Positions 1 to 7,825 of a stretch of 64,000 nucleotides of DNA are shown one piece after another. A model generated the notes under the pieces. That model made no database searches, was not told the DNA's origin, and saw only the letters and a program-made list of their open reading frames with translations. How positions within the stretch are numbered: the stretch's first letter is position 1; every line of letters starts with the position of its first letter. The stretch is from a virus, in IMG/VR virus record IMGVR_UViG_3300030419_004857, positions 1-64,000 of that record. One strand, given 5' to 3'. Both the position numbers and the translations under genes were made by a program.

Positions 1-59
1 ACCGGCCCGCCACGATTCTACGGCTTACAGCCGCGCTCATGCCACCGAGCTACAAGGGC
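1..59 (-). tRNA. tRNA-Tyr(GTA)-like gene, 3' end cut off by window edge
   Basis: Minus strand reads GCCCTTG-TA-GCTC-GGTGGCAT-GAGC-GCGG-CTGTAAG-CCGT-long variable region-GCCGGT...: acceptor 5' strand, D-arm, CT-GTA-AG anticodon loop and start of T-arm. The anticodon stem is only about 4 bp, so it is atypical. Confidence 0.5.
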
Positions 60-73
60 TTCACTTGTTTCAA

Positions 74-85
74 TTGTCAAAGATC
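74..85 (-). promoter_or_regulatory. boxA-like antitermination element (GATCTTTGACAA) upstream of the tRNA-like gene
   Basis: Resembles boxA of rRNA/tRNA leaders; lies between promoter 166-194, the GC hairpin 96-149 and the tRNA. Confidence 0.45.
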
Positions 86-95
86 GTTGTATTAT

Positions 96-149
96 CTCCC
101 CCCGGCAGTAGTCGGCTAGCACCTACTCTTGAGTTGCTGCCGGGGGGAG
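96..149 (-). other. Long GC-rich leader hairpin
   Basis: CTCCCCCCGGCAG...CTGCCGGGGGGAG, 13-bp perfect inverted repeat. Confidence 0.7.
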
Positions 150-165
150 CTTGTGTTGTGCGTGT

Positions 166-194
166 ATTGTACCAGACACGCCTCTGGTTGTCAA
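166..194 (-). promoter_or_regulatory. sigma70-type early promoter
   Basis: TTGACA-17-TACAAT. Confidence 0.85.
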
Positions 195-424
195 CCGTTT
201 TTCTTCATTGCGTCGGAATCGACATACTGAACTGGCAACGTTCGGAAGTGAAGCCCGCCCAGTCCGCAAGCCTCAAAGAACCGGTCACGGTCAAACCGGG
301 GATTCTCTCGTTCAAAGTAATCCGCTAGATCACTCGCCATCTCGTGAGAGAACTCACGCCCCACCTTGGGGAGATGCTTCTTGATGATCGCTGCCTGTTC
401 CTCGAATACTTTTCGCGTCAGCAT
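191..424 (-). CDS. Hypothetical early phage protein (77 aa, MLTRKVFEEQ...NPRFDRDRFFEACG)
   Basis: ORF track 191..490 re-started at ATG 424 (GAGGG RBS), downstream of promoter 462-490. Confidence 0.75.
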   Translation of the reverse strand: MLTRKVFEEQAAIIKKHLPKVGREFSHEMASDLADYFERENPRFDRDRFFEACGLGGLHFRTLPVQYVDSDAMKKNG

Positions 425-461
425 TGTGTCGCCCTCTCGTGTGTTGTTGTTGTGAGCGTGT

Positions 462-490
462 ATTGTATCACACGTCTCGCCTGTTGTCAA
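462..490 (-). promoter_or_regulatory. sigma70-type early promoter
   Basis: TTGACA-17-TACAAT. Confidence 0.85.
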
Positions 491-651
491 CCCTGTTTGT
501 GTGGCTGTCCGGTGAATATGTCAAGCCCGTTCTCGGCTCGCCACTGGTACAACCGGATACGCGACTCACGTTTCTCCGGGGTGTCCTTCACTTGCTTCTG
601 TTGTGGGTTACGATAGTCCGCTGTCGCCTTGCACGGAATACTGATATCCAA
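487..651 (-). CDS. Hypothetical early protein (54 aa, TTG start, MDISIPCKATADYRNPQQ...GLDIFTGQPHKQG)
   Basis: Read manually; AGAGGG RBS; TGA stop overlaps the -35 box of the next promoter. Confidence 0.6.
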   Translation of the reverse strand: MDISIPCKATADYRNPQQKQVKDTPEKRESRIRLYQWRAENGLDIFTGQPHKQG

Positions 652-760
652 CTGTCTGCCCTCTTTCTAGTTCACTGGCTCACAGGTCGTCCCGTTGTGG
701 AGCGGCCTCGTTAGCGTGATACTGTGAACGCTAACGAGGCCGCTTGTTTTACCTCAACCC

Positions 761-952
761 CTACGGGGGTGGGATCATAGCGGGCTTGCACGGTGGCGAA
801 TACCGACCCGCCAACGCTCGGATCAACTCGTCCTCGTCCACCAACATCTGGAAAACGTGGTCGCCAATTGTCACGGCCAAAACCGTAGAGCCAACCGGCC
901 TAGCTTGCGTTGCGTCAAGCGTCTCCACCTTTGCATCATGTATCTGTATCAT
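761..952 (-). CDS. Hypothetical early protein (63 aa)
   Basis: ORF track; GAGG RBS; tiles with the neighbouring minus-strand ORFs. Confidence 0.6.
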   Translation of the reverse strand: MIQIHDAKVETLDATQARPVGSTVLAVTIGDHVFQMLVDEDELIRALAGRYSPPCKPAMIPPP

Positions 953-955
953 CGT

Positions 956-1051
956 CTACCTCGTGCCAATAATAATGAGTGTCCAGTATACCAGAAACGA
1001 CATCGTCAGCCAAGTGTCCCGATCAATCCTTTTCAGTGTCTTCACTTTCAT
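956..1051 (-). CDS. Micro-ORF, 31 aa, hydrophobic C-half (MKVKTLKRIDRDTWLTMSFLVYWTLIIIGTR)
   Basis: Read manually; ATGA overlap with the upstream micro-ORF; GAGGG RBS. Confidence 0.55.
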   Translation of the reverse strand: MKVKTLKRIDRDTWLTMSFLVYWTLIIIGTR

Positions 1052-1119
1052 CCCTCTACAATATCCTTTACCAACAAACTAAACAAAGCCGCTGCCACTG
1101 CCCACATCCACCAACTCAT
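1048..1119 (-). CDS. Hydrophobic micropeptide, 23 aa (MSWWMWAVAAALFSLLVKDIVEG)
   Basis: Read manually; GAGG RBS; directly downstream of promoter 1144-1171. Confidence 0.6.
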   Translation of the reverse strand: MSWWMWAVAAALFSLLVKDIVEG

Positions 1120-1143
1120 CGCGTCAGTCCTCGATTCGTATGT

Positions 1144-1171
1144 ATTATACCAGATATGCCGCCGATGTCAA
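1144..1171 (-). promoter_or_regulatory. sigma70-type early promoter
   Basis: TTGACA-16-TATAAT. Confidence 0.85.
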
Positions 1172-1398
1172 GCCCACCAGATACGCTCACCGGCCAACGC
1201 TCTCGCACCGAGGTGAACCGATTCGGCCCACGCCCACAGCTTCCGATTCTTCTCGGTTGGTACGGCGGATGCCTGAGCCTTGTACTTGTCCATCACGGCT
1301 TTCGCCTTGTCAACGTCGGTCAGCTTGGCACGTTGTGCCCGGTCGATGCCCTTGTTGATTTTCTCTCGTGTGATCTCTGCTGCCATTGTCCAAGTCAT
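1168..1398 (-). CDS. Hypothetical early protein (76 aa, basic, helical)
   Basis: ORF track; AAAGGG RBS; downstream of promoter 1435-1462; stop lies inside the next -35 box. Confidence 0.7.
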   Translation of the reverse strand: MTWTMAAEITREKINKGIDRAQRAKLTDVDKAKAVMDKYKAQASAVPTEKNRKLWAWAESVHLGARALAGERIWWA

Positions 1399-1434
1399 GT
1401 GCGCCCTTTCGTGTGTCGCGTGTTGTATGCCCCC

Positions 1435-1462
1435 ATTATACTATATTATCGTCAAAAGTCAA
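1435..1462 (-). promoter_or_regulatory. sigma70-type early promoter
   Basis: TTGACT-16-TATAAT. Confidence 0.75.
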
Positions 1463-1604
1463 GCCCAACCTCCACCCTATCTCCCCTTTTTTCCTAATTG
1501 AGATCCAGTCTCAACTCACTGACCCACAGCCTTCCCTCTTCGCAAGCCGGGCGGTTGTCGCAAGACAGCCGCCCGGCGCGTTCTACCCTATCCCGCCTTC
1601 TATG

Positions 1605-1724
1605 TCAACCCCAATTTGTCATTATTCCTACGAATGTGATTGTCACCATCGCCGCCGCGAATCCCATTGACAGCATCCACATGAGGATGTATACCCACTC
1701 ACACGCCACACCAAACCACTTCAT
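1605..1724 (-). CDS. Hydrophobic micropeptide, 39 aa (MKWFGVACEWVYILMWMLSMGFAAAMVTITFVGIMTNWG)
   Basis: Read manually; TAATG coupling to ORF 1724..1942; GGAGG RBS. Confidence 0.6.
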   Translation of the reverse strand: MKWFGVACEWVYILMWMLSMGFAAAMVTITFVGIMTNWG

Positions 1725-1942
1725 TAGACTTCCTCCGTTCGGATAGTATAGCAGCCCGCGTCCTCGCCCCGTGGCAGAACTTGATAGGCCACCCCTTCGG
1801 TGGACACCGAGATACTGAACAGCCGATGCCCGTCAGCGTTGTGTACGTCCACGGTCGCCACCCCCAATTCGGGAATGTCTTCCATGCTGAAGAATCCCAT
1901 TCCGCCCTGAGTGTCACAAACGTCCATATGATCAAGTCTCAT
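1724..1942 (-). CDS. Hypothetical early protein (72 aa)
   Basis: ORF track; operon-like tiling. Confidence 0.65.
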   Translation of the reverse strand: MRLDHMDVCDTQGGMGFFSMEDIPELGVATVDVHNADGHRLFSISVSTEGVAYQVLPRGEDAGCYTIRTEEV

Positions 1943-1943
1943 T

Positions 1944-2189
1944 CTACGTCCCCTTCACTTTCCAGATTTTCACTCTCTTGCCCAACTCACCGTTGAACCC
2001 AACACCGCCACCGGTCAGTTGTGAATAGTCAATTGCCATTCCCACCTTGCCACCATCTGCAAGCCCAAGTTGACCATGCAGGATGGTGATGTACTGGTGT
2101 TTGCGGTGAGCCTTCAACGGCACGATTGCGAAGTCGTGCTTGGCTCCCCTGTCGAACAAGTCGCCTGTCTTCGGTTTGTGTTGCATCAT
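1944..2189 (-). CDS. Hypothetical early protein (81 aa)
   Basis: ORF track; GGAG RBS. Confidence 0.65.
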   Translation of the reverse strand: MMQHKPKTGDLFDRGAKHDFAIVPLKAHRKHQYITILHGQLGLADGGKVGMAIDYSQLTGGGVGFNGELGKRVKIWKVKGT

Positions 2190-2197
2190 TTTCTCCG

Positions 2198-2440
2198 TCA
2201 GTCACTCACACAGAATCGGGTAGGGGGACGGTAGTTCGGCCCAGCCTCGTGGGCCGCTTGCCGGTCACGGTTGCCCGCGAACCACGCCTTCCACTCGTCC
2301 AGCCAGTGGGGGAAAGTTATACCAGCCCGCTGGTTGTCAACCTGCTCGCAGCGGAAACACTGGTTGCCCGCCACAAAGGACGCACAAGTCAGTCGGCCAC
2401 AAGCACAGTTGTGTGGGCTGGTGTGATTGTTGTTGGTCAT
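2198..2440 (-). CDS. Hypothetical early protein (80 aa, Cys-rich N-half, possibly Zn-binding)
   Basis: ORF track; GAGGG RBS; CACG..C...CFRC; downstream of promoter 2474-2503. Confidence 0.65.
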   Translation of the reverse strand: MTNNNHTSPHNCACGRLTCASFVAGNQCFRCEQVDNQRAGITFPHWLDEWKAWFAGNRDRQAAHEAGPNYRPPTRFCVSD

Positions 2441-2473
2441 AGTGTTACCCTCTCGTGTTGTTTGTCAGAACGT

Positions 2474-2503
2474 ATTATAGCAGACGCCCCCGCCCGCCGT
2501 CAA
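2474..2503 (-). promoter_or_regulatory. sigma70-type early promoter
   Basis: TTGACG-18-TATAAT. Confidence 0.75.
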
Positions 2504-2505
2504 CC

Positions 2506-2805
2506 CTACCACCCGCAGTCATCGTACTGCCCGTGGTCCCAGTCGTCCCCACCCATGTAATCCTGCCACTCGGTGTACTCGTCCGGTTGCCCGTCGTCCT
2601 CATAGTAGTCGTCGTCGTCCACGTCCTCCACCACCGGCAACTCGTCCTTGCGGATCTGGAACGTCTCCGGTTCGTCTTTGGCTCCGAACACCGGGAACGG
2701 GTACGCTGGGGGGTACGGTGCGGATTCTTCCCGTGCCCGCTTGTCGGCCTCGATGATCTGGGCCTCGATGTCGGTCACGTTGTCGCGGGTCTCGTCGTGT
2801 CGCAT
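2506..2805 (-). CDS. Small highly acidic protein, paralogue A (99 aa)
   Basis: GGAG RBS; D/E-rich; aligns with 3352..3576. Confidence 0.8.
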   Translation of the reverse strand: MRHDETRDNVTDIEAQIIEADKRAREESAPYPPAYPFPVFGAKDEPETFQIRKDELPVVEDVDDDDYYEDDGQPDEYTEWQDYMGGDDWDHGQYDDCGW

Positions 2806-2960
2806 GGTATCTCCATTTTTCTCACTGGCTCACAAGCAGCACCGTTGTGGAGCGGCCTTGTTAGCGTGAGACTGCGAACGCTAACAAGGCCGCTTGTTTT
2901 ACCTGAACATCGCGGCGGGTCGACCCCGGAACTTGGGGAGCTTGTCACCCGTGTGCGTGT

Positions 2961-2989
2961 ATTGTATCCGACCTCGCCCCGGCTGTCAA
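2961..2989 (-). promoter_or_regulatory. sigma70-type early promoter
   Basis: TTGACA-17-TACAAT. Confidence 0.85.
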
Positions 2990-3093
2990 CCCCTATTGTT
3001 GGTCAGCCGCCAGATAAGTCGGTCCATCAGGTCAGCACAAACGATTCCGCCAAACACGGCGAACACCAGATCGGTAAACCACATGTCGTGCAT
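2986..3093 (-). CDS. Micropeptide, 35 aa (MHDMWFTDLVFAVFGGIVCADLMDRLIWRLTNNRG)
   Basis: Read manually; GGAG RBS; stop inside the next -35 box. Confidence 0.55.
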   Translation of the reverse strand: MHDMWFTDLVFAVFGGIVCADLMDRLIWRLTNNRG

Positions 3094-3213
3094 CAGACTA
3101 CTCCATTGCCCTTTTCACACTGACTCACGAGTCGCTCCGTTGTGGAGCAGCGTCGTTGACCTAGGACGAAACGACGCTGCTTGTTCTACCTGAACAGCGC
3201 CGCGTCCCGCCGA

Positions 3214-3285
3214 TCACAGCGTTTCCAGATTTACCAACAACTGGTACACCGCCACTCCCGCCGCTATCACATACATCACGCCCAT
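3214..3285 (-). CDS. Hydrophobic micropeptide, 23 aa (MGVMYVIAAGVAVYQLLVNLETL)
   Basis: Read manually; GAGGG RBS. Confidence 0.5.
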   Translation of the reverse strand: MGVMYVIAAGVAVYQLLVNLETL

Positions 3286-3292
3286 ATCGCCC

Positions 3293-3343
3293 TCACTTGT
3301 AAACCGCAATAAACAACAAAGCCGCCGCCGCCACTTGCACCAT
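3293..3343 (-). CDS. Hydrophobic micropeptide, 16 aa (MVQVAAAALLFIAVYK)
   Basis: Read manually; weak RBS; shares VAAAL with 1048..1119. Confidence 0.4.
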   Translation of the reverse strand: MVQVAAAALLFIAVYK

Positions 3344-3351
3344 CGTATCCA

Positions 3352-3576
3352 CTAGTAGCCCTCACCCCACACGGATTCACTGTGATCATAGTACTCGTCA
3401 CCGCCGAAGTAATCTTGCCACTCGTCATACTCCGATGGCTGATGATCATCTTCCTCAATGTCGTCTTCATCGGTCACGACCGCATCGAAGAACCAACCCG
3501 CCGTCTCGCGGTTGTCGGCCTCGATGATGGTATCTTCGGTGTCGGTGATGTTGTCGCGTGTGTCGTCGAATCGCAT
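3352..3576 (-). CDS. Small highly acidic protein, paralogue B (74 aa)
   Basis: AAGGG RBS; aligns with 2506..2805. Confidence 0.8.
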   Translation of the reverse strand: MRFDDTRDNITDTEDTIIEADNRETAGWFFDAVVTDEDDIEEDDHQPSEYDEWQDYFGGDEYYDHSESVWGEGY

Positions 3577-3653
3577 TGTGTCTACCCTTTCAAGGTAAGT
3601 GTGTTGGGTCGGCCCCGTTGAGTGGGGAGCTTGTCACCCGTGTGTATGTAGGT

Positions 3654-3682
3654 ATTGTATCAGGACTGCCAACGAGTGTCAA
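3654..3682 (-). promoter_or_regulatory. sigma70-type early promoter
   Basis: TTGACA-17-TACAAT. Confidence 0.85.
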
Positions 3683-3878
3683 CCGTCCGCTTCACGTATC
3701 TCCGTCGCCACACCCCACGGATGTACTGTTCACTTCCACAGTGGAGAATGGTGTTGCTGTAATCACCATGCCGGATGCCGATGTACCAGCTTGTACCCCG
3801 ATGCCACATGGTGATTTCTCTGTCGTTAGCCTTGCACCATGTCATGGTCGGTGCGGTTGTCGCGATCACGGTCTTCAT
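3660..3878 (-). CDS. Hypothetical early protein (72 aa)
   Basis: ORF track; start uncertain. Confidence 0.55.
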   Translation of the reverse strand: MKTVIATTAPTMTWCKANDREITMWHRGTSWYIGIRHGDYSNTILHCGSEQYIRGVWRRRYVKRTVDTRWQS

Positions 3879-3975
3879 TTCTCTGACTCACAGGGGGTGT
3901 TGTTGTGGAGCAGCGTTGTTAGCGTGAGACGGGCGAACGCTAACAACGCTGCTTGTCTTACCCGACCTCCGACCG

Positions 3976-4041
3976 CTAGTCGAAGTCGCCAAGCAGCCAA
4001 GCGATGATGATGATAAGTCCGAGGTAACCTGAGAAGCCCAT
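3976..4041 (-). CDS. Hydrophobic micropeptide, 21 aa (MGFSGYLGLIIIIAWLLGDFD)
   Basis: GGAG RBS; own promoter 4073-4101; paralogue at 4759..4824 differs by synonymous/conservative changes. Confidence 0.75.
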   Translation of the reverse strand: MGFSGYLGLIIIIAWLLGDFD

Positions 4042-4072
4042 GTCATTCTCCATGTGTGATGTGTATGCCAGT

Positions 4073-4101
4073 ATATTACCGACTCGCCTCTCCCGTGTCA
4101 A
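4073..4101 (-). promoter_or_regulatory. sigma70-type early promoter
   Basis: TTGACA-17-TAATAT with an AT-rich upstream tract. Confidence 0.75.
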
Positions 4102-4249
4102 CCCCCAATTTACTAATTTATAAAATCGCTGGCTCACGCCTCCCCTTCTTGTGGAGCCGCGTGGATGTCCTAAGACCATTCACGCGGCTCGTCTTACCCG
4201 ATCTCGGAAAAATCCGGTTTTGGGCTTGACTTCCGCGCGGCGGTTGATC

Positions 4250-4423
4250 TCAGCAATGCCGGTGTGTGTCGTGCCAATAGTCGAACCCGCTTGGCCCGTC
4301 GCCGGTCGGTTTCGGCTTGTCGGTTTTCACGCCGCTCGCCTCGTCCGCTTTCCGCTTGGCGACCCGAGCCTTATAGTCGGCCCATCGTTTGCGTCGCCGT
4401 TCCCAGTCTTGTGCGTTTGTCAT
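4250..4423 (-). CDS. Hypothetical basic protein (57 aa, MTNAQDWERRRKRWADYKARVAKRK...)
   Basis: Read manually; starts 3 nt after the endonuclease stop; AAGGGA RBS. Confidence 0.55.
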   Translation of the reverse strand: MTNAQDWERRRKRWADYKARVAKRKADEASGVKTDKPKPTGDGPSGFDYWHDTHRHC

Positions 4424-4426
4424 TCT

Positions 4427-4759
4427 CTATCCCTTCAAGTAATTGATTGCCCGACGCAGCATGTCGATGCTGTCGCCAAACTTGCCAAGTGCGTTGTTGC
4501 AGTCGTTGCACAACCAGCCCCGAAACTCATCGGTGTCGTGGTCGTGGTCGAGTACGATCTTGCCGCCGCTCCGTTTGCAGATCGGACACGTCGCGTCGGT
4601 CGGTTTCGTATTCTCCCGATGGAGTCTTGCCCGGACTTTCCGTTGGTGTCCCCGGCAATCGTTGCAAGTGTGTTTCCGCAACACGCCGCTTGGCAGTGTG
4701 TTGTTGATCGGAAAGTGGTCGAGTGGTTTCGTCTCGTCACATCGTTTGCAGATCCGCAT
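4427..4759 (-). CDS. Recombination endonuclease VII-family (His-Me finger) nuclease
   Basis: CPIC...LDHDHDT..FRGWLC..CN.ALG.F.D...L..A..YL signature plus an N-terminal CxxC/CxxC finger. Confidence 0.88.
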   Translation of the reverse strand: MRICKRCDETKPLDHFPINNTLPSGVLRKHTCNDCRGHQRKVRARLHRENTKPTDATCPICKRSGGKIVLDHDHDTDEFRGWLCNDCNNALGKFGDSIDMLRRAINYLKG

Positions 4760-4824
4760 TAGTCGAAGTCTCCCAAGACGAAAGCGAGCACAATCAGCAG
4801 TCCGAGGTAACCTGAGAATCCCAT
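4759..4824 (-). CDS. Hydrophobic micropeptide, 21 aa (MGFSGYLGLLIVLAFVLGDFD)
   Basis: GGAG RBS; own promoter 4859-4886; TAATG-coupled to the endonuclease VII gene. Confidence 0.75.
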   Translation of the reverse strand: MGFSGYLGLLIVLAFVLGDFD

Positions 4825-4858
4825 TGTCGTTTTCTCCGTTGCGTTGTTGTATCTGTCC

Positions 4859-4886
4859 ATTGTAGCAAACCGCCGCCCGCTGTCAA
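4859..4886 (-). promoter_or_regulatory. sigma70-type early promoter
   Basis: TTGACA-16-TACAAT. Confidence 0.8.
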
Positions 4887-4888
4887 CC

Positions 4889-5014
4889 CTACCGCCGTCG
4901 CGACTTGAACGGGTTGAAGCGGCAGAAGTCTTGCACTGCGATCAGCCCCATCGGAACCACGATCAGTGCGAGTGCGGTCAGTGCGATCAGTGCGTCGATT
5001 GTTGTGGTCGTCAT
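4889..5014 (-). CDS. Single-TM micropeptide, 41 aa (MTTTTIDALIALTALALIVVPMGLIAVQDFCRFNPFKSRRR)
   Basis: GGAG RBS; own promoter 5048-5075; similar to 5856..5957. Confidence 0.7.
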   Translation of the reverse strand: MTTTTIDALIALTALALIVVPMGLIAVQDFCRFNPFKSRRR

Positions 5015-5047
5015 TGTGTTGTCTCCGTTGCGTTGTTGTGAGTCTCC

Positions 5048-5075
5048 ATTGTAGTTGATCGGCCACCTACGTCAA
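5048..5075 (-). promoter_or_regulatory. sigma70-type early promoter
   Basis: TTGACG-16-TACAAT. Confidence 0.75.
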
Positions 5076-5109
5076 TCCACTTTAGTCACTTTGGCCCATT
5101 TTTTTCCAG

Positions 5110-5151
5110 TGCAACTACCGTGCCAAACGGCCCCAGCAAAACCCGTGCCAA
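5110..5151 (-). promoter_or_regulatory. Two tandem sigma54 (-24/-12) consensus sites
   Basis: TTGGCACG-GGTT-TTGCT (5135-5151) and TTGGCACG-GTAG-TTGCA (5110-5126), both matching TGGCACG-N4-TTGCW. Confidence 0.7.
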
Positions 5152-5167
5152 TCGGAAAATTTCCTTA

Positions 5168-5203
5168 TTGAGACTGAGTCTCAACATGTAGCATTATGCT
5201 ACA
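5168..5203. promoter_or_regulatory. Two adjacent 17-bp operator-like palindromes
   Basis: TTGAGACT-G-AGTCTCAA (5168-5184; related copy at 1498-1514) and TGTAGCAT-T-ATGCTACA (5187-5203). Confidence 0.65.
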
Positions 5204-5311
5204 CTTCGCCTTCAAGCTGCATGGGTGTGGAAAGACACACCCATGCAGCTTGTCTTACCCGACCCCCTAGAGGGCCGGGCTTGCCCAGCTTACCAAGCTT
5301 ACCCAGCTTGC

Positions 5312-5383
5312 CTACCAGTCCGCGTTCCCCAAAAGCCCCTCATATACCACAGCTACCAAAGCCACCAGAAACAGCGTATTCAT
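5312..5383 (-). CDS. Hydrophobic micropeptide, 23 aa (MNTLFLVALVAVVYEGLLGNADW)
   Basis: Read manually; lies in a ~200-bp duplicated unit; paralogue at 5515..5577. Confidence 0.65.
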   Translation of the reverse strand: MNTLFLVALVAVVYEGLLGNADW

Positions 5384-5514
5384 GCCAATTTCCCTATCTT
5401 ACCTAGCTTCACACACTCCGCCGTTCATCGGCGTCGTTGGGCTACAACGAAACGACGCCGATAGTCTTACCCGACCCCCCATTGGGCCGGGCTTACCCAT
5501 CTTGCCAAGTCTGC

Positions 5515-5577
5515 CTATCCCCCCAAAAGCCCCTCGTAGATGATAGCTGCCAGAGCGACCAGAAATAGCGTATTCAT
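5515..5577 (-). CDS. Hydrophobic micropeptide, 20 aa (MNTLFLVALAAIIYEGLLGG)
   Basis: GGGAG RBS; differences from the paralogue are synonymous or conservative. Confidence 0.68.
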   Translation of the reverse strand: MNTLFLVALAAIIYEGLLGG

Positions 5578-5740
5578 ACCAAACTCCCTATCTTGCCTAG
5601 CTTCCGTCACGTCGCCGTCAATCAGCGTCGTTGAGGTGAAACGAAACGACGCTGATCGTCCTACCTCATCCCGCCCTGCACGGTGGGCCGACCCCGGAGC
5701 TTGGGGAGCTTTCGCCCTTGTGTGCTGTGAGCGCCTCGCC

Positions 5741-5791
5741 TCATCCGTCGATGATGATGGCGATGATCGCGATGATCAGAAACCAATTCAT
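5741..5791 (-). CDS. Hydrophobic micropeptide, 16 aa (MNWFLIIAIIAIIIDG)
   Basis: GGGAG RBS; own promoter 5825-5853. Confidence 0.65.
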   Translation of the reverse strand: MNWFLIIAIIAIIIDG

Positions 5792-5824
5792 GTTGTTCTC
5801 CCTAGTGCGTTGTTGTGTACGGGT

Positions 5825-5853
5825 ATTGTATACCAACACCCCACCACTGTCAA
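5825..5853 (-). promoter_or_regulatory. sigma70-type early promoter
   Basis: TTGACA-17-TACAAT. Confidence 0.85.
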
Positions 5854-5855
5854 CC

Positions 5856-5957
5856 CTACTTGCGCCACGAGTGTGCCCGTGCATCCTGAATACCGAGGAT
5901 GATGATGGGCAGGACGATGGCGGTCAGCATGGCGGCGGTGATGAGTGTGTTGGTCAT
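5856..5957 (-). CDS. Single-TM micropeptide, 33 aa (MTNTLITAAMLTAIVLPIIILGIQDARAHSWRK)
   Basis: GGAG RBS; similar to 4889..5014. Confidence 0.62.
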   Translation of the reverse strand: MTNTLITAAMLTAIVLPIIILGIQDARAHSWRK

Positions 5958-5986
5958 GGCCTGTGGCTCCGGTTATGTCGTCGTTG

Positions 5987-7200
5987 ATCAGGGTCGTTGA
6001 GGTGGCACGAAACGACCCTGATTGTATTACCTGAAAGCGTTGTTCGAATTTTCAAGCATTAGATTATGGGATTTCTAAAGTGTAGCATAATGCAACAGTT
6101 AAAAGTTCGCCGGTTTCTTGGTCTCCGAACACTCGATCCGCCGCACTTTAACGTGGCTAGCTTGAATAAGACAAGATAGCCACGTCGTCCTACCTAATGC
6201 TGTTCGAGTTTTGAAGCCTTAGATTGTGGCATCTCTAAAGTGTTGCATTATGCAACAGTAAAAGTTGGCCAGTTTCAAGGTTTCGCAACGCTCGATCCGC
6301 CGCTCTTTAACGTGGGTGAGTTGAGTAGGACAACTCACCCACGTCGTCCTACCTGAAAGTGCCCCGATTCGTATGCTTGAAGCCCTTCAATCCGGGCAAC
6401 TCTAAAGTGTAGCGAAATGATACACAAAAAGTTCCCCTAGTTCAAGCGCTCTCAACCCTCGATCCGCCGCACCTCAACGCGGGTGGATTGTAAAAGACAA
6501 TACACCCGCGTCGTCTTACCCAAAAGTTCCCCCGATTCAAACGCTTCAAGCCCTTCAATCTGGGCATGTTGAAAGTGTAGCATTATGCTACAAAAAAAGT
6601 TCCCTAGTTTCTTGGTCTCGCAACCCTTGATCCGCCGCACTTCATGAGGCTAGGTTGAGTAGGACAACCTAGCCTCATCGTTCTACCTAAACAGGTGCTT
6701 CAAACCTCGAACAATGCTATATACGGGCAAACACGACGCGACGTAACTCGTTGCTATTGCTGGACTTAGAGTGTAGCAAAAAGCCACACGCTAACTAACT
6801 TGTAAAAGATCGCACATGCTCATTTATCGCCGCCTTTGATGTGGCTAGGTTGAATAGGACAACCTAGCCACATCGGATCACCCGATCTAATGTTCCAAAC
6901 CTCGCACAACGCTATATACAGCCAAACGCGCCGCGCCCTAAGTCGTTGGTATCACTAGGCTTAGGGTGTAGCAAAAAGCCACACACTATCTAAGGCTTCA
7001 AACCTCGCACATGCTCACTTACGCCCATCTTCGACTTGGATAGATTGAAGAGGACAATCTATCCAAGTTGGCTTACCTGAAAGGCTCAAAACCTCGCACA
7101 TCACTATATACGCCTAACTGTCATAATGGCAGACATATGCTATATTGGCACTGTCATACTGGCACACTGCCACCCTGACATGTGTAGCATTATGCACCAC
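5987..7200. repeat. Non-coding degenerate tandem array of seven units (hairpin + GTYYTACCY + TGTAGCA-N3-TGCWACA-like palindrome)
   Basis: Hairpin starts spaced 164, 159, 167, 167, 195 and 195 bp; palindromes at 6081, 6241, 6408, 6576, 6772, 6967 and 7183; shared CTCGATCCGCCGC and AAACCTCGCACA blocks. Confidence 0.9.
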
Positions 7201-7369: not shown

Positions 7370-7825
7370 TCATTCACCCAGCGCCCGCTTGTTCCCCTTT
7401 TTCTTCATCGCCGTTTCAGGATCAATCCCCTTATTCAACCTATTATAAAATGCCGCGTAGCTAACTTCGCACCTTTCATCCTCCACCCACTCGCCCACAT
7501 TCTTTTCTTCCCCAAAAGCCTCAATTTTCACATTAGACTTCATGTTATTGGCGTTCTCTTTCGGAGTCACCTCCCGCAAATTGGCCCTAGTGTTGTTCAG
7601 CCTGTCATTATCTAAGTGATCTACAAAGATATACGGACTACTAGTGCCCGCAACCATCCTATGCATCGACTTATGCCTTCCCCCAATTTTTGTAATGGCA
7701 TAGCCCTGCTTATTGATATGCCAGCTATACCTGCTCAGCCATGCATAATCTTCCGGGCTAACTTTTACATACTGCCCTGCCCCCGTCACGCCCCCCAAGG
7801 GGATCTCAAAATATAGATCACTCAT
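7370..7825 (-). CDS. HNH endonuclease (homing-type)
   Basis: SMHRMV...VDHLDNDRLNNTRANLREVT.KENANN motif. Confidence 0.85.
   Translation of the reverse strand: MSDLYFEIPLGGVTGAGQYVKVSPEDYAWLSRYSWHINKQGYAITKIGGRHKSMHRMVAGTSSPYIFVDHLDNDRLNNTRANLREVTPKENANNMKSNVKIEAFGEEKNVGEWVEDERCEVSYAAFYNRLNKGIDPETAMKKKGNKRALGE

Follow-up and report, generated by a model that had tools for sequence, protein, structure and literature searches.

What are thirteen tiny open reading frames (ORFs), each predicted to encode a hydrophobic peptide of 16-41 amino acids (aa), doing in a few kilobases at one end of a large phage genome, and are they genes at all? They lie on the minus strand of the window analysed here, a 64,000-nucleotide (nt) stretch that forms the first 64 kb of virus record IMGVR_UViG_3300030419_004857, a 161,265-base record of an uncultured marine virus that is rated complete. 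An initial annotation had described them as a hidden, early-expressed set of membrane peptides, in part arranged as paralogous pairs, and all 13 are present with the positions and translations that it gave. The data presented establish the 13 ORFs as selected genes, 11 of which are well supported.

Selection on the micro-ORFs

In positions 1-6100, micro-ORFs were required to start with ATG, to follow a ribosome-binding site and to reach a 13-residue hydropathy of 2.0 or more. The minus strand gave 11 such ORFs and the plus strand one, where Markov nulls of order 1-4 gave 0.05-0.16 (maximum 2). Two of the 13 were missed, namely 956..1051, which fell just under the threshold at 1.99, and 3293..3343, which has a GGAT site only. 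Most members had been credited with a Shine-Dalgarno sequence, which stands for the 11 that pass, with the reservation that the sites of 5312..5383 (AGGGA) and 3293..3343 are weak. Furthermore, five genes (5741, 4889, 4759, 3976 and 1048) follow their own near-consensus TTGACA/TAyAAT promoter, at 5853-5825, 5075-5048, 4886-4859, 4101-4073 and 1171-1144 respectively, with leaders of ~18-28 nt, in agreement with the sigma70 promoters first noted. Start/stop overlaps with a neighbour can be read directly from the sequence in three places: the stop of 4759..4824 overlaps the start of an endonuclease VII gene, the start of 1605..1724 (39 aa) overlaps the stop of 1724-1942, and the start of 956..1051 (31 aa, with homologues in distant relatives) overlaps the stop of 1048..1119 (23 aa).

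Variation among close strains (~40 contigs, partly redundant) follows the reading frames. Distinct changes comprise 41 at 243 synonymous sites and 20 at 744 non-synonymous sites, a ratio of non-synonymous to synonymous polymorphism (pN/pS) of 0.16, and the synonymous excess has a binomial p of ~3e-12. Three genes served as baits in the search that assembled these contigs, which biases the set for those genes; with them dropped, by hand, 27 synonymous and 11 non-synonymous changes are left (ratio ~0.14). The hydrophobic core is broken in no allele, and 5856..5957 on its own contributes 12 synonymous and 5 non-synonymous changes. Against the more distant contigs L017, L053, L063 and L022, the ratio of non-synonymous to synonymous substitution rates (dN/dS) is 0.10-0.29, compared with 0.18-0.25 for neighbouring larger genes. 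A pooled value of 0.59 against L016 was discarded, as it reflects a false alignment of 4759..4824, whose slot has another gene there. Two genes vary hardly at all among the close strains: 1048..1119 is invariant and 3293..3343, which encodes 16 aa, is intact in 34 matches with one variant site, a synonymous change. It is therefore context that speaks for these two, the case for their coding is circumstantial, and 3293..3343 has the weakest support of the 13.

The near-invariance of these two genes, together with the fact that all of the support comes from sequence, could be turned into an argument that the ORFs are chance frames or untranslated by-products of the regulatory repeats around them. 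The null models, the synonymous excess, the intact frames and the start-stop overlaps all oppose that view, which is barely credible. The coding first proposed is thus upheld, whereas the description of the set as hidden is true only in part: the five peptides of at least 31 aa had already been called by gene finders in public collections, while look-ups of five peptides of 21-23 aa found none of them in the public protein collection.

Families, cassettes and tagged hairpins

The paired peptides belong to clade-wide multi-copy families in related marine phages, a breadth that was overlooked at first, as was the architecture of hairpin-bounded, swapped cassettes described below. Family A, represented here by 4759..4824 and 3976..4041 (21 aa each), has 15 copies at 10 loci and an invariant G..A..LGDFD. 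Its two paralogues differ by synonymous or hydrophobic changes, as had been said of the pairs in general, but in family B (5312..5383, 23 aa, and 5515..5577, 20 aa) the differences also take in N20G and an early stop, which marks 5515..5577 as a short-tailed allele without the usual NADW end. This family has 26 copies at 14 loci, in tandem sets of two or three, with interchangeable tails and a conserved core ending in E, in which A and E are invariant; the 16-aa product of 5741..5791 is family B-like. Family C, with 25 representatives at 50% clustering, has an invariant P and near-invariant D and W, and includes 4889..5014 (41 aa) and 5856..5957 (33 aa), whose suspected paralogy is backed by intermediate homologues. 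In the 33-aa peptide the invariant proline lies within the helix and is followed by D, after which comes the basic tail [RK]H[PS]W. The remaining genes are 2986..3093 (35 aa) and 3214..3285 (23 aa), the latter with a divergent in-frame allele of 83% nucleotide identity. More distant relatives keep the region with ~1-8 hydrophobic micro-ORFs of other sequence each, giving 62 clusters in total. Four further hydrophobic micro-ORFs with ribosome sites were seen at the contig end (minus-strand starts at G000 C1 160755, 158219, 155710 and 153710, in L001).

Structure prediction for family C gives one helix over residues 2-28 with a predicted local distance difference test (pLDDT) score of 92.6, in keeping with the single hydrophobic helix originally proposed. 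Net positive charge precedes the core in 7 of 62 peptide clusters, compared with 12 of 21 and 12 of 16 hydrophobic N-termini of long ORFs, and this pattern appears to fit signal-less single spans rather than secreted peptides. In most peptides an acidic residue closes the core.

Promoters, and hairpins with a 5' GGTARRAC-type tag, delimit the short cassettes in which the genes sit, and strains gain, lose, duplicate, reorder and swap these cassettes. Most sister strains carry a ~460-bp unit with two more membrane peptides that this genome lacks, the junction being at tag 2903; some have a 206-bp gene inserted behind promoter 1171, and in other strains three family B cassettes come before the C and D cassettes rather than after them. 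Between promoter 4886 and the endonuclease VII gene lies a slot that 10 contigs fill with family A and 21 with an unrelated membrane peptide, both occupants having the same stop-start overlap with endonuclease VII. Each arrangement is seen consistently across independent samples and assemblies.

Fourteen tagged hairpins lie between the genes of 701-6687, all on the minus strand. Four have a 17-bp stem (701..753, 2851..2903, which forms the junction of the ~460-bp unit, 3909..3962 and 5213..5259), and others are at 1546..1587, 3146..3190 (ahead of 2986..3093) and 4154..4198. Those at 5427..5471 and 5621..5665 head the family B cassettes of 5312..5383 and 5515..5577, and that at 5987..6031 heads the 5856..5957 cassette. 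The series continues into 6041..6687, where each 167-nt tandem unit carries a tagged hairpin and a 17-nt palindrome, and no peptide gene was found. Copies also occur in L001 (up to four more tags), L003, L022, L053 and others, and the 135 copies detected in relatives all lie on the sense strand. In the main class a 17-bp stem is capped by a TCRNNN(N)GTMTC loop, with compensatory change in 11 of the 17 pairs. Among interior stem mismatches there are 41 of G-T against 10 of A-C, an excess that favours pairing on the transcribed strand. Among 125 hairpins, 66 lead to a ribosome site and 11 to a promoter; a T three bases before the tag is conserved, and seven copies have TTGAC at promoter spacing, like an extended -10 box. 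No U-tract terminator was called at the hairpins and no Rfam family matched at its cut-off. A gyrA-motif score of 25.5 bits, against an Rfam cut-off of 45, was treated as chance; the hairpin at 4154..4198 has such a weak, sub-threshold score. A 5' tag joined to a palindrome is also the mark of repetitive extragenic palindromes (REP) mobilised by REP-associated tyrosine transposases (RAYT), and here the tag is GGTARRAC, with GTAG in some copies only. A REP/RAYT origin was not supported, with no PF01797 (Y1 transposase) found and hairpin copies in none of five incomplete genomes of planctomycetes, the probable hosts (see below). The hairpin is an unnamed, strongly covarying element that deserves separate study.

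Other repeats accompany the hairpins. A tandem array of 167-nt and 195-nt units, in which no gene was found, spans 6041-7120 and holds the 17-nt palindrome eight times (also at 5187-5203); it is a candidate origin or operator array. A palindromic 17-nt site at 1498-1514 and 5168-5184, present in relatives too and usually placed between hairpin and promoter, is a candidate operator. A second repeated leader motif (2917-2961, 3606-3650, 5685-5729), which follows promoters 2989 and 3682, folds no better than shuffled sequences.

Genomic setting and possible function

One GC-richer, minus-strand region is made up of positions 1-7100 and the contig's last 9 kb, and in a sister contig window position 35 is joined straight to contig-end sequence. 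Most near-consensus TTGACA/TAyAAT promoters of the genome fall in this region; 11 promoters of this sigma70 type stand among the cassettes (166..5853, minus). Small orphan genes are dense here and have host-polymerase-type promoters, as in the early modules of phages SPO1 and T4, which bears out the early context first suggested. From 8245 onwards the plus strand encodes a sigma-factor-like protein, the terminase and long products mostly without assigned function. The terminase shares only ~23% identity with any cultured phage, and by this gene the phage is not T4-like. No tyrosine integrase was found and the phage is probably lytic; it encodes a RecA. The best matches of a DUF1501 gene come mostly from Planctomycetota, which makes a planctomycete the probable host.

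Several neighbouring features were recorded. The endonuclease VII-like gene (4427-4759) lies inside the early region, and an HNH gene (7370-7825), 75-100% conserved among relatives, lies at its edge. Host-like genes (L119 18504-19742; L121 3828-5687; L119 5044-8830) encode the DUF1501 protein, an acyl-CoA dehydrogenase and two trypsin-like peptidases. A paralogous pair of very acidic small proteins (2506-2805, 3352-3576), with a C-terminal motif conserved in many related phages, are possible DNA mimics. At the contig break, positions 1-60 (also L001 12345-12500 and L016 18647-18835) hold a tRNA-shaped RNA candidate with D-arm-like and T-arm-like ends and a variable internal insert, for which there is no Rfam call and the fold is not significant (z -0.8). 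A stable hairpin transcript at 92-150, behind promoter 194 (z -3.7), is strongly conserved in relatives, with a second copy near L001 12540-12590.

The reading considered best, and given roughly an even chance, is that this is a hyperplastic early host-takeover region, in which single-helix peptides attach to inner-membrane proteins of the host and adjust their activity. The host RNA polymerase would transcribe the micro-genes directly after DNA entry, and the peptides would insert in the inner membrane as single spans, as suggested by the lack of a signal peptide and, mostly, of basic residues before the helix; the basic tail of family C would stay inside. The conserved polar or proline residues of each family would then let it dock laterally on a particular membrane protein of the host and alter that protein's activity, in the manner of bacterial AcrZ/MgrB-type peptides and as proposed for Ac of phage T4. 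Candidate partners are a transporter, a sensor, a protease, or an entry or defence complex. Recombination between repeated hairpins and promoters, with the phage RecA as a candidate agent, may tune dose and repertoire for different hosts. An extension of this idea, in which the tagged hairpin would be a dedicated recombination or RNA-processing site in an integron-like, programmable array of peptides that neutralise host membrane defence or entry complexes, is improbable.

Several points weigh against the takeover reading. The planctomycete host call depends on a single gene at ~45-50% identity, repeats allow assembly misjoins (though independent samples agree on the arrangements), and the uncharged stretches of the shortest peptides, at 14-15 residues, are short for a span. 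The host targets are putative, and early expression is predicted from the sequence. Searches of Pfam, PHROGs, NCBIfam, PADLOC, PDB and cultured phages turned up no significant match to the peptides, whose function is accordingly argued by analogy. All ESM Atlas matches fell under 0.9, a Foldseek search with the single helix found nothing, and among cultured phage records no peptide matched and a single weak nucleotide match, annotated as an HNH endonuclease, came up. Nothing in the five planctomycete genomes matched family A or C convincingly. Mimicry of TatA or prepilins failed in comparisons with profiles of host TatA and N-methyl leader helices (hhalign probability 0.2-12.6%).

The roles first suggested, namely a block on defence sensors, superinfection exclusion or an effect on proton-motive force, are possible alternatives, and none of the results chooses among them. 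Early, strong expression signals and the swapping of alleles between co-occurring strains would also suit superinfection exclusion as the main job, with peptides plugging the DNA-entry or receptor-assembly machinery of competitors, like T4 Imm, and small phage membrane proteins are generally known to have an established role of this kind. The peptides are similar to no exclusion family, however, the profile comparisons with host TatA and prepilin N-termini reached a probability of at most 13%, and at least 10 unrelated families seem many for one job, which leaves exclusion a doubtful main function. That any short helix might serve, by repairing entry lesions, changing lipid synthesis or saturating a membrane protease or insertase, is unlikely given the invariant residues within families, which suggest specific contacts. 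Such contacts also bear on the proposal that the peptides act without a protein partner, as type I toxin-like pores or depolarising agents that lower proton-motive force or stall growth. Their size and hydrophobicity overlap those of Ibs, TisB and Fst (PMC10730256 for the class), and the acidic residue at the core end could shuttle protons. On the other side stand the conserved sequence-specific motifs, a low hydrophobic moment in the paired families (0.09-0.53), the short leaders and the lack of a plus-strand antisense promoter, and an early energy collapse would presumably harm replication of a 161-kb genome; depolarisation is accordingly quite unlikely.

If host-protein binding is true, the peptides would be a ready-made, evolution-filtered set of minimal modulators, 16-41 aa long, acting on the unusual envelope of planctomycetes, and would address the old question of what tiny early membrane protein clusters do in lytic phages. 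Such arsenals are under-counted, since at least five of the genes were missed by standard gene callers despite selection like that on larger neighbours.

Comparison with known systems

The likeness to type I toxins (Ibs, TisB, Fst/Ldr, Hok) lies in a small hydrophobic one-helix product. The plus strand has only weak 9-of-12 matches to an antisense promoter, which leaves room for a trans-encoded RNA. In place of a long occluding leader, the five genes with their own promoters have the short leaders given above, with ribosome sites 35-66% unpaired. Profiles of Ibs, TisB, Fst, Ldr and Hok gave no match, in a comparison that has low power for very short queries and did not cover all of the three shortest ORFs. 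The missing antitoxin unit, the short leaders and the lack of a family match rule against membership of the class, and the toxin kinship first put forward is not supported. Its companion suggestion, a likeness to small membrane regulators, fared better: AcrZ, MgrB, MgtS and KdpF are similar in size, in having one helix and in their few conserved polar residues, although no family match was found and the peptides here are phage-encoded. An MgtS-like protein was no more than a sub-threshold Atlas neighbour (0.76). In 2022 Fremin et al. reportedly described thousands of small transmembrane gene families encoded by phages.

In phage T4, predicted membrane proteins are grouped in three clusters, and AcrAB-TolC is the proposed target of its 51-aa Ac (10.1101/2025.06.30.662393); deletion of the ac, 52.1, ndd.1-6 region prevents phospholipid synthesis from being stimulated (PMC6071114). 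These clusters of 'monkey-wrench' immediate-early genes and the present set are both early and clustered, with small hydrophobic products of mostly unknown function, but there is no sequence match and the peptides here go down to 16-23 aa, form multi-copy paralogous families and are swapped at strain level. SPO1 has a 24-gene host-takeover module that includes Gp56, which binds FtsL (PMC10531801). Its small, early orphan genes likewise form a block driven by strong host promoters, with no homology found and a far lower share of micro-membrane peptides than here. Promoter early stem-loop (PeSL) motifs shuffle ORFans in T4-like phages (PMC2839356, PMC4122927), and as in those cassettes, small ORFans here stand between recurring promoters of the sigma70 type and stem-loops, and the points of insertion, deletion and replacement map to repeats. 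In PeSL, stem-loop and promoter form one composite motif; here the two mostly stand apart, and what comes after a hairpin is usually a gene start rather than a promoter. The PeSL stem is a polyG/polyC terminator, whereas here a 5' GGTARRAC tag precedes a covarying 17-bp helix. Systems of this kind are thus known; the novelty lies in the families, which are extremely short and amplified as paralogues, in the swapping of slots and in the unnamed hairpin.

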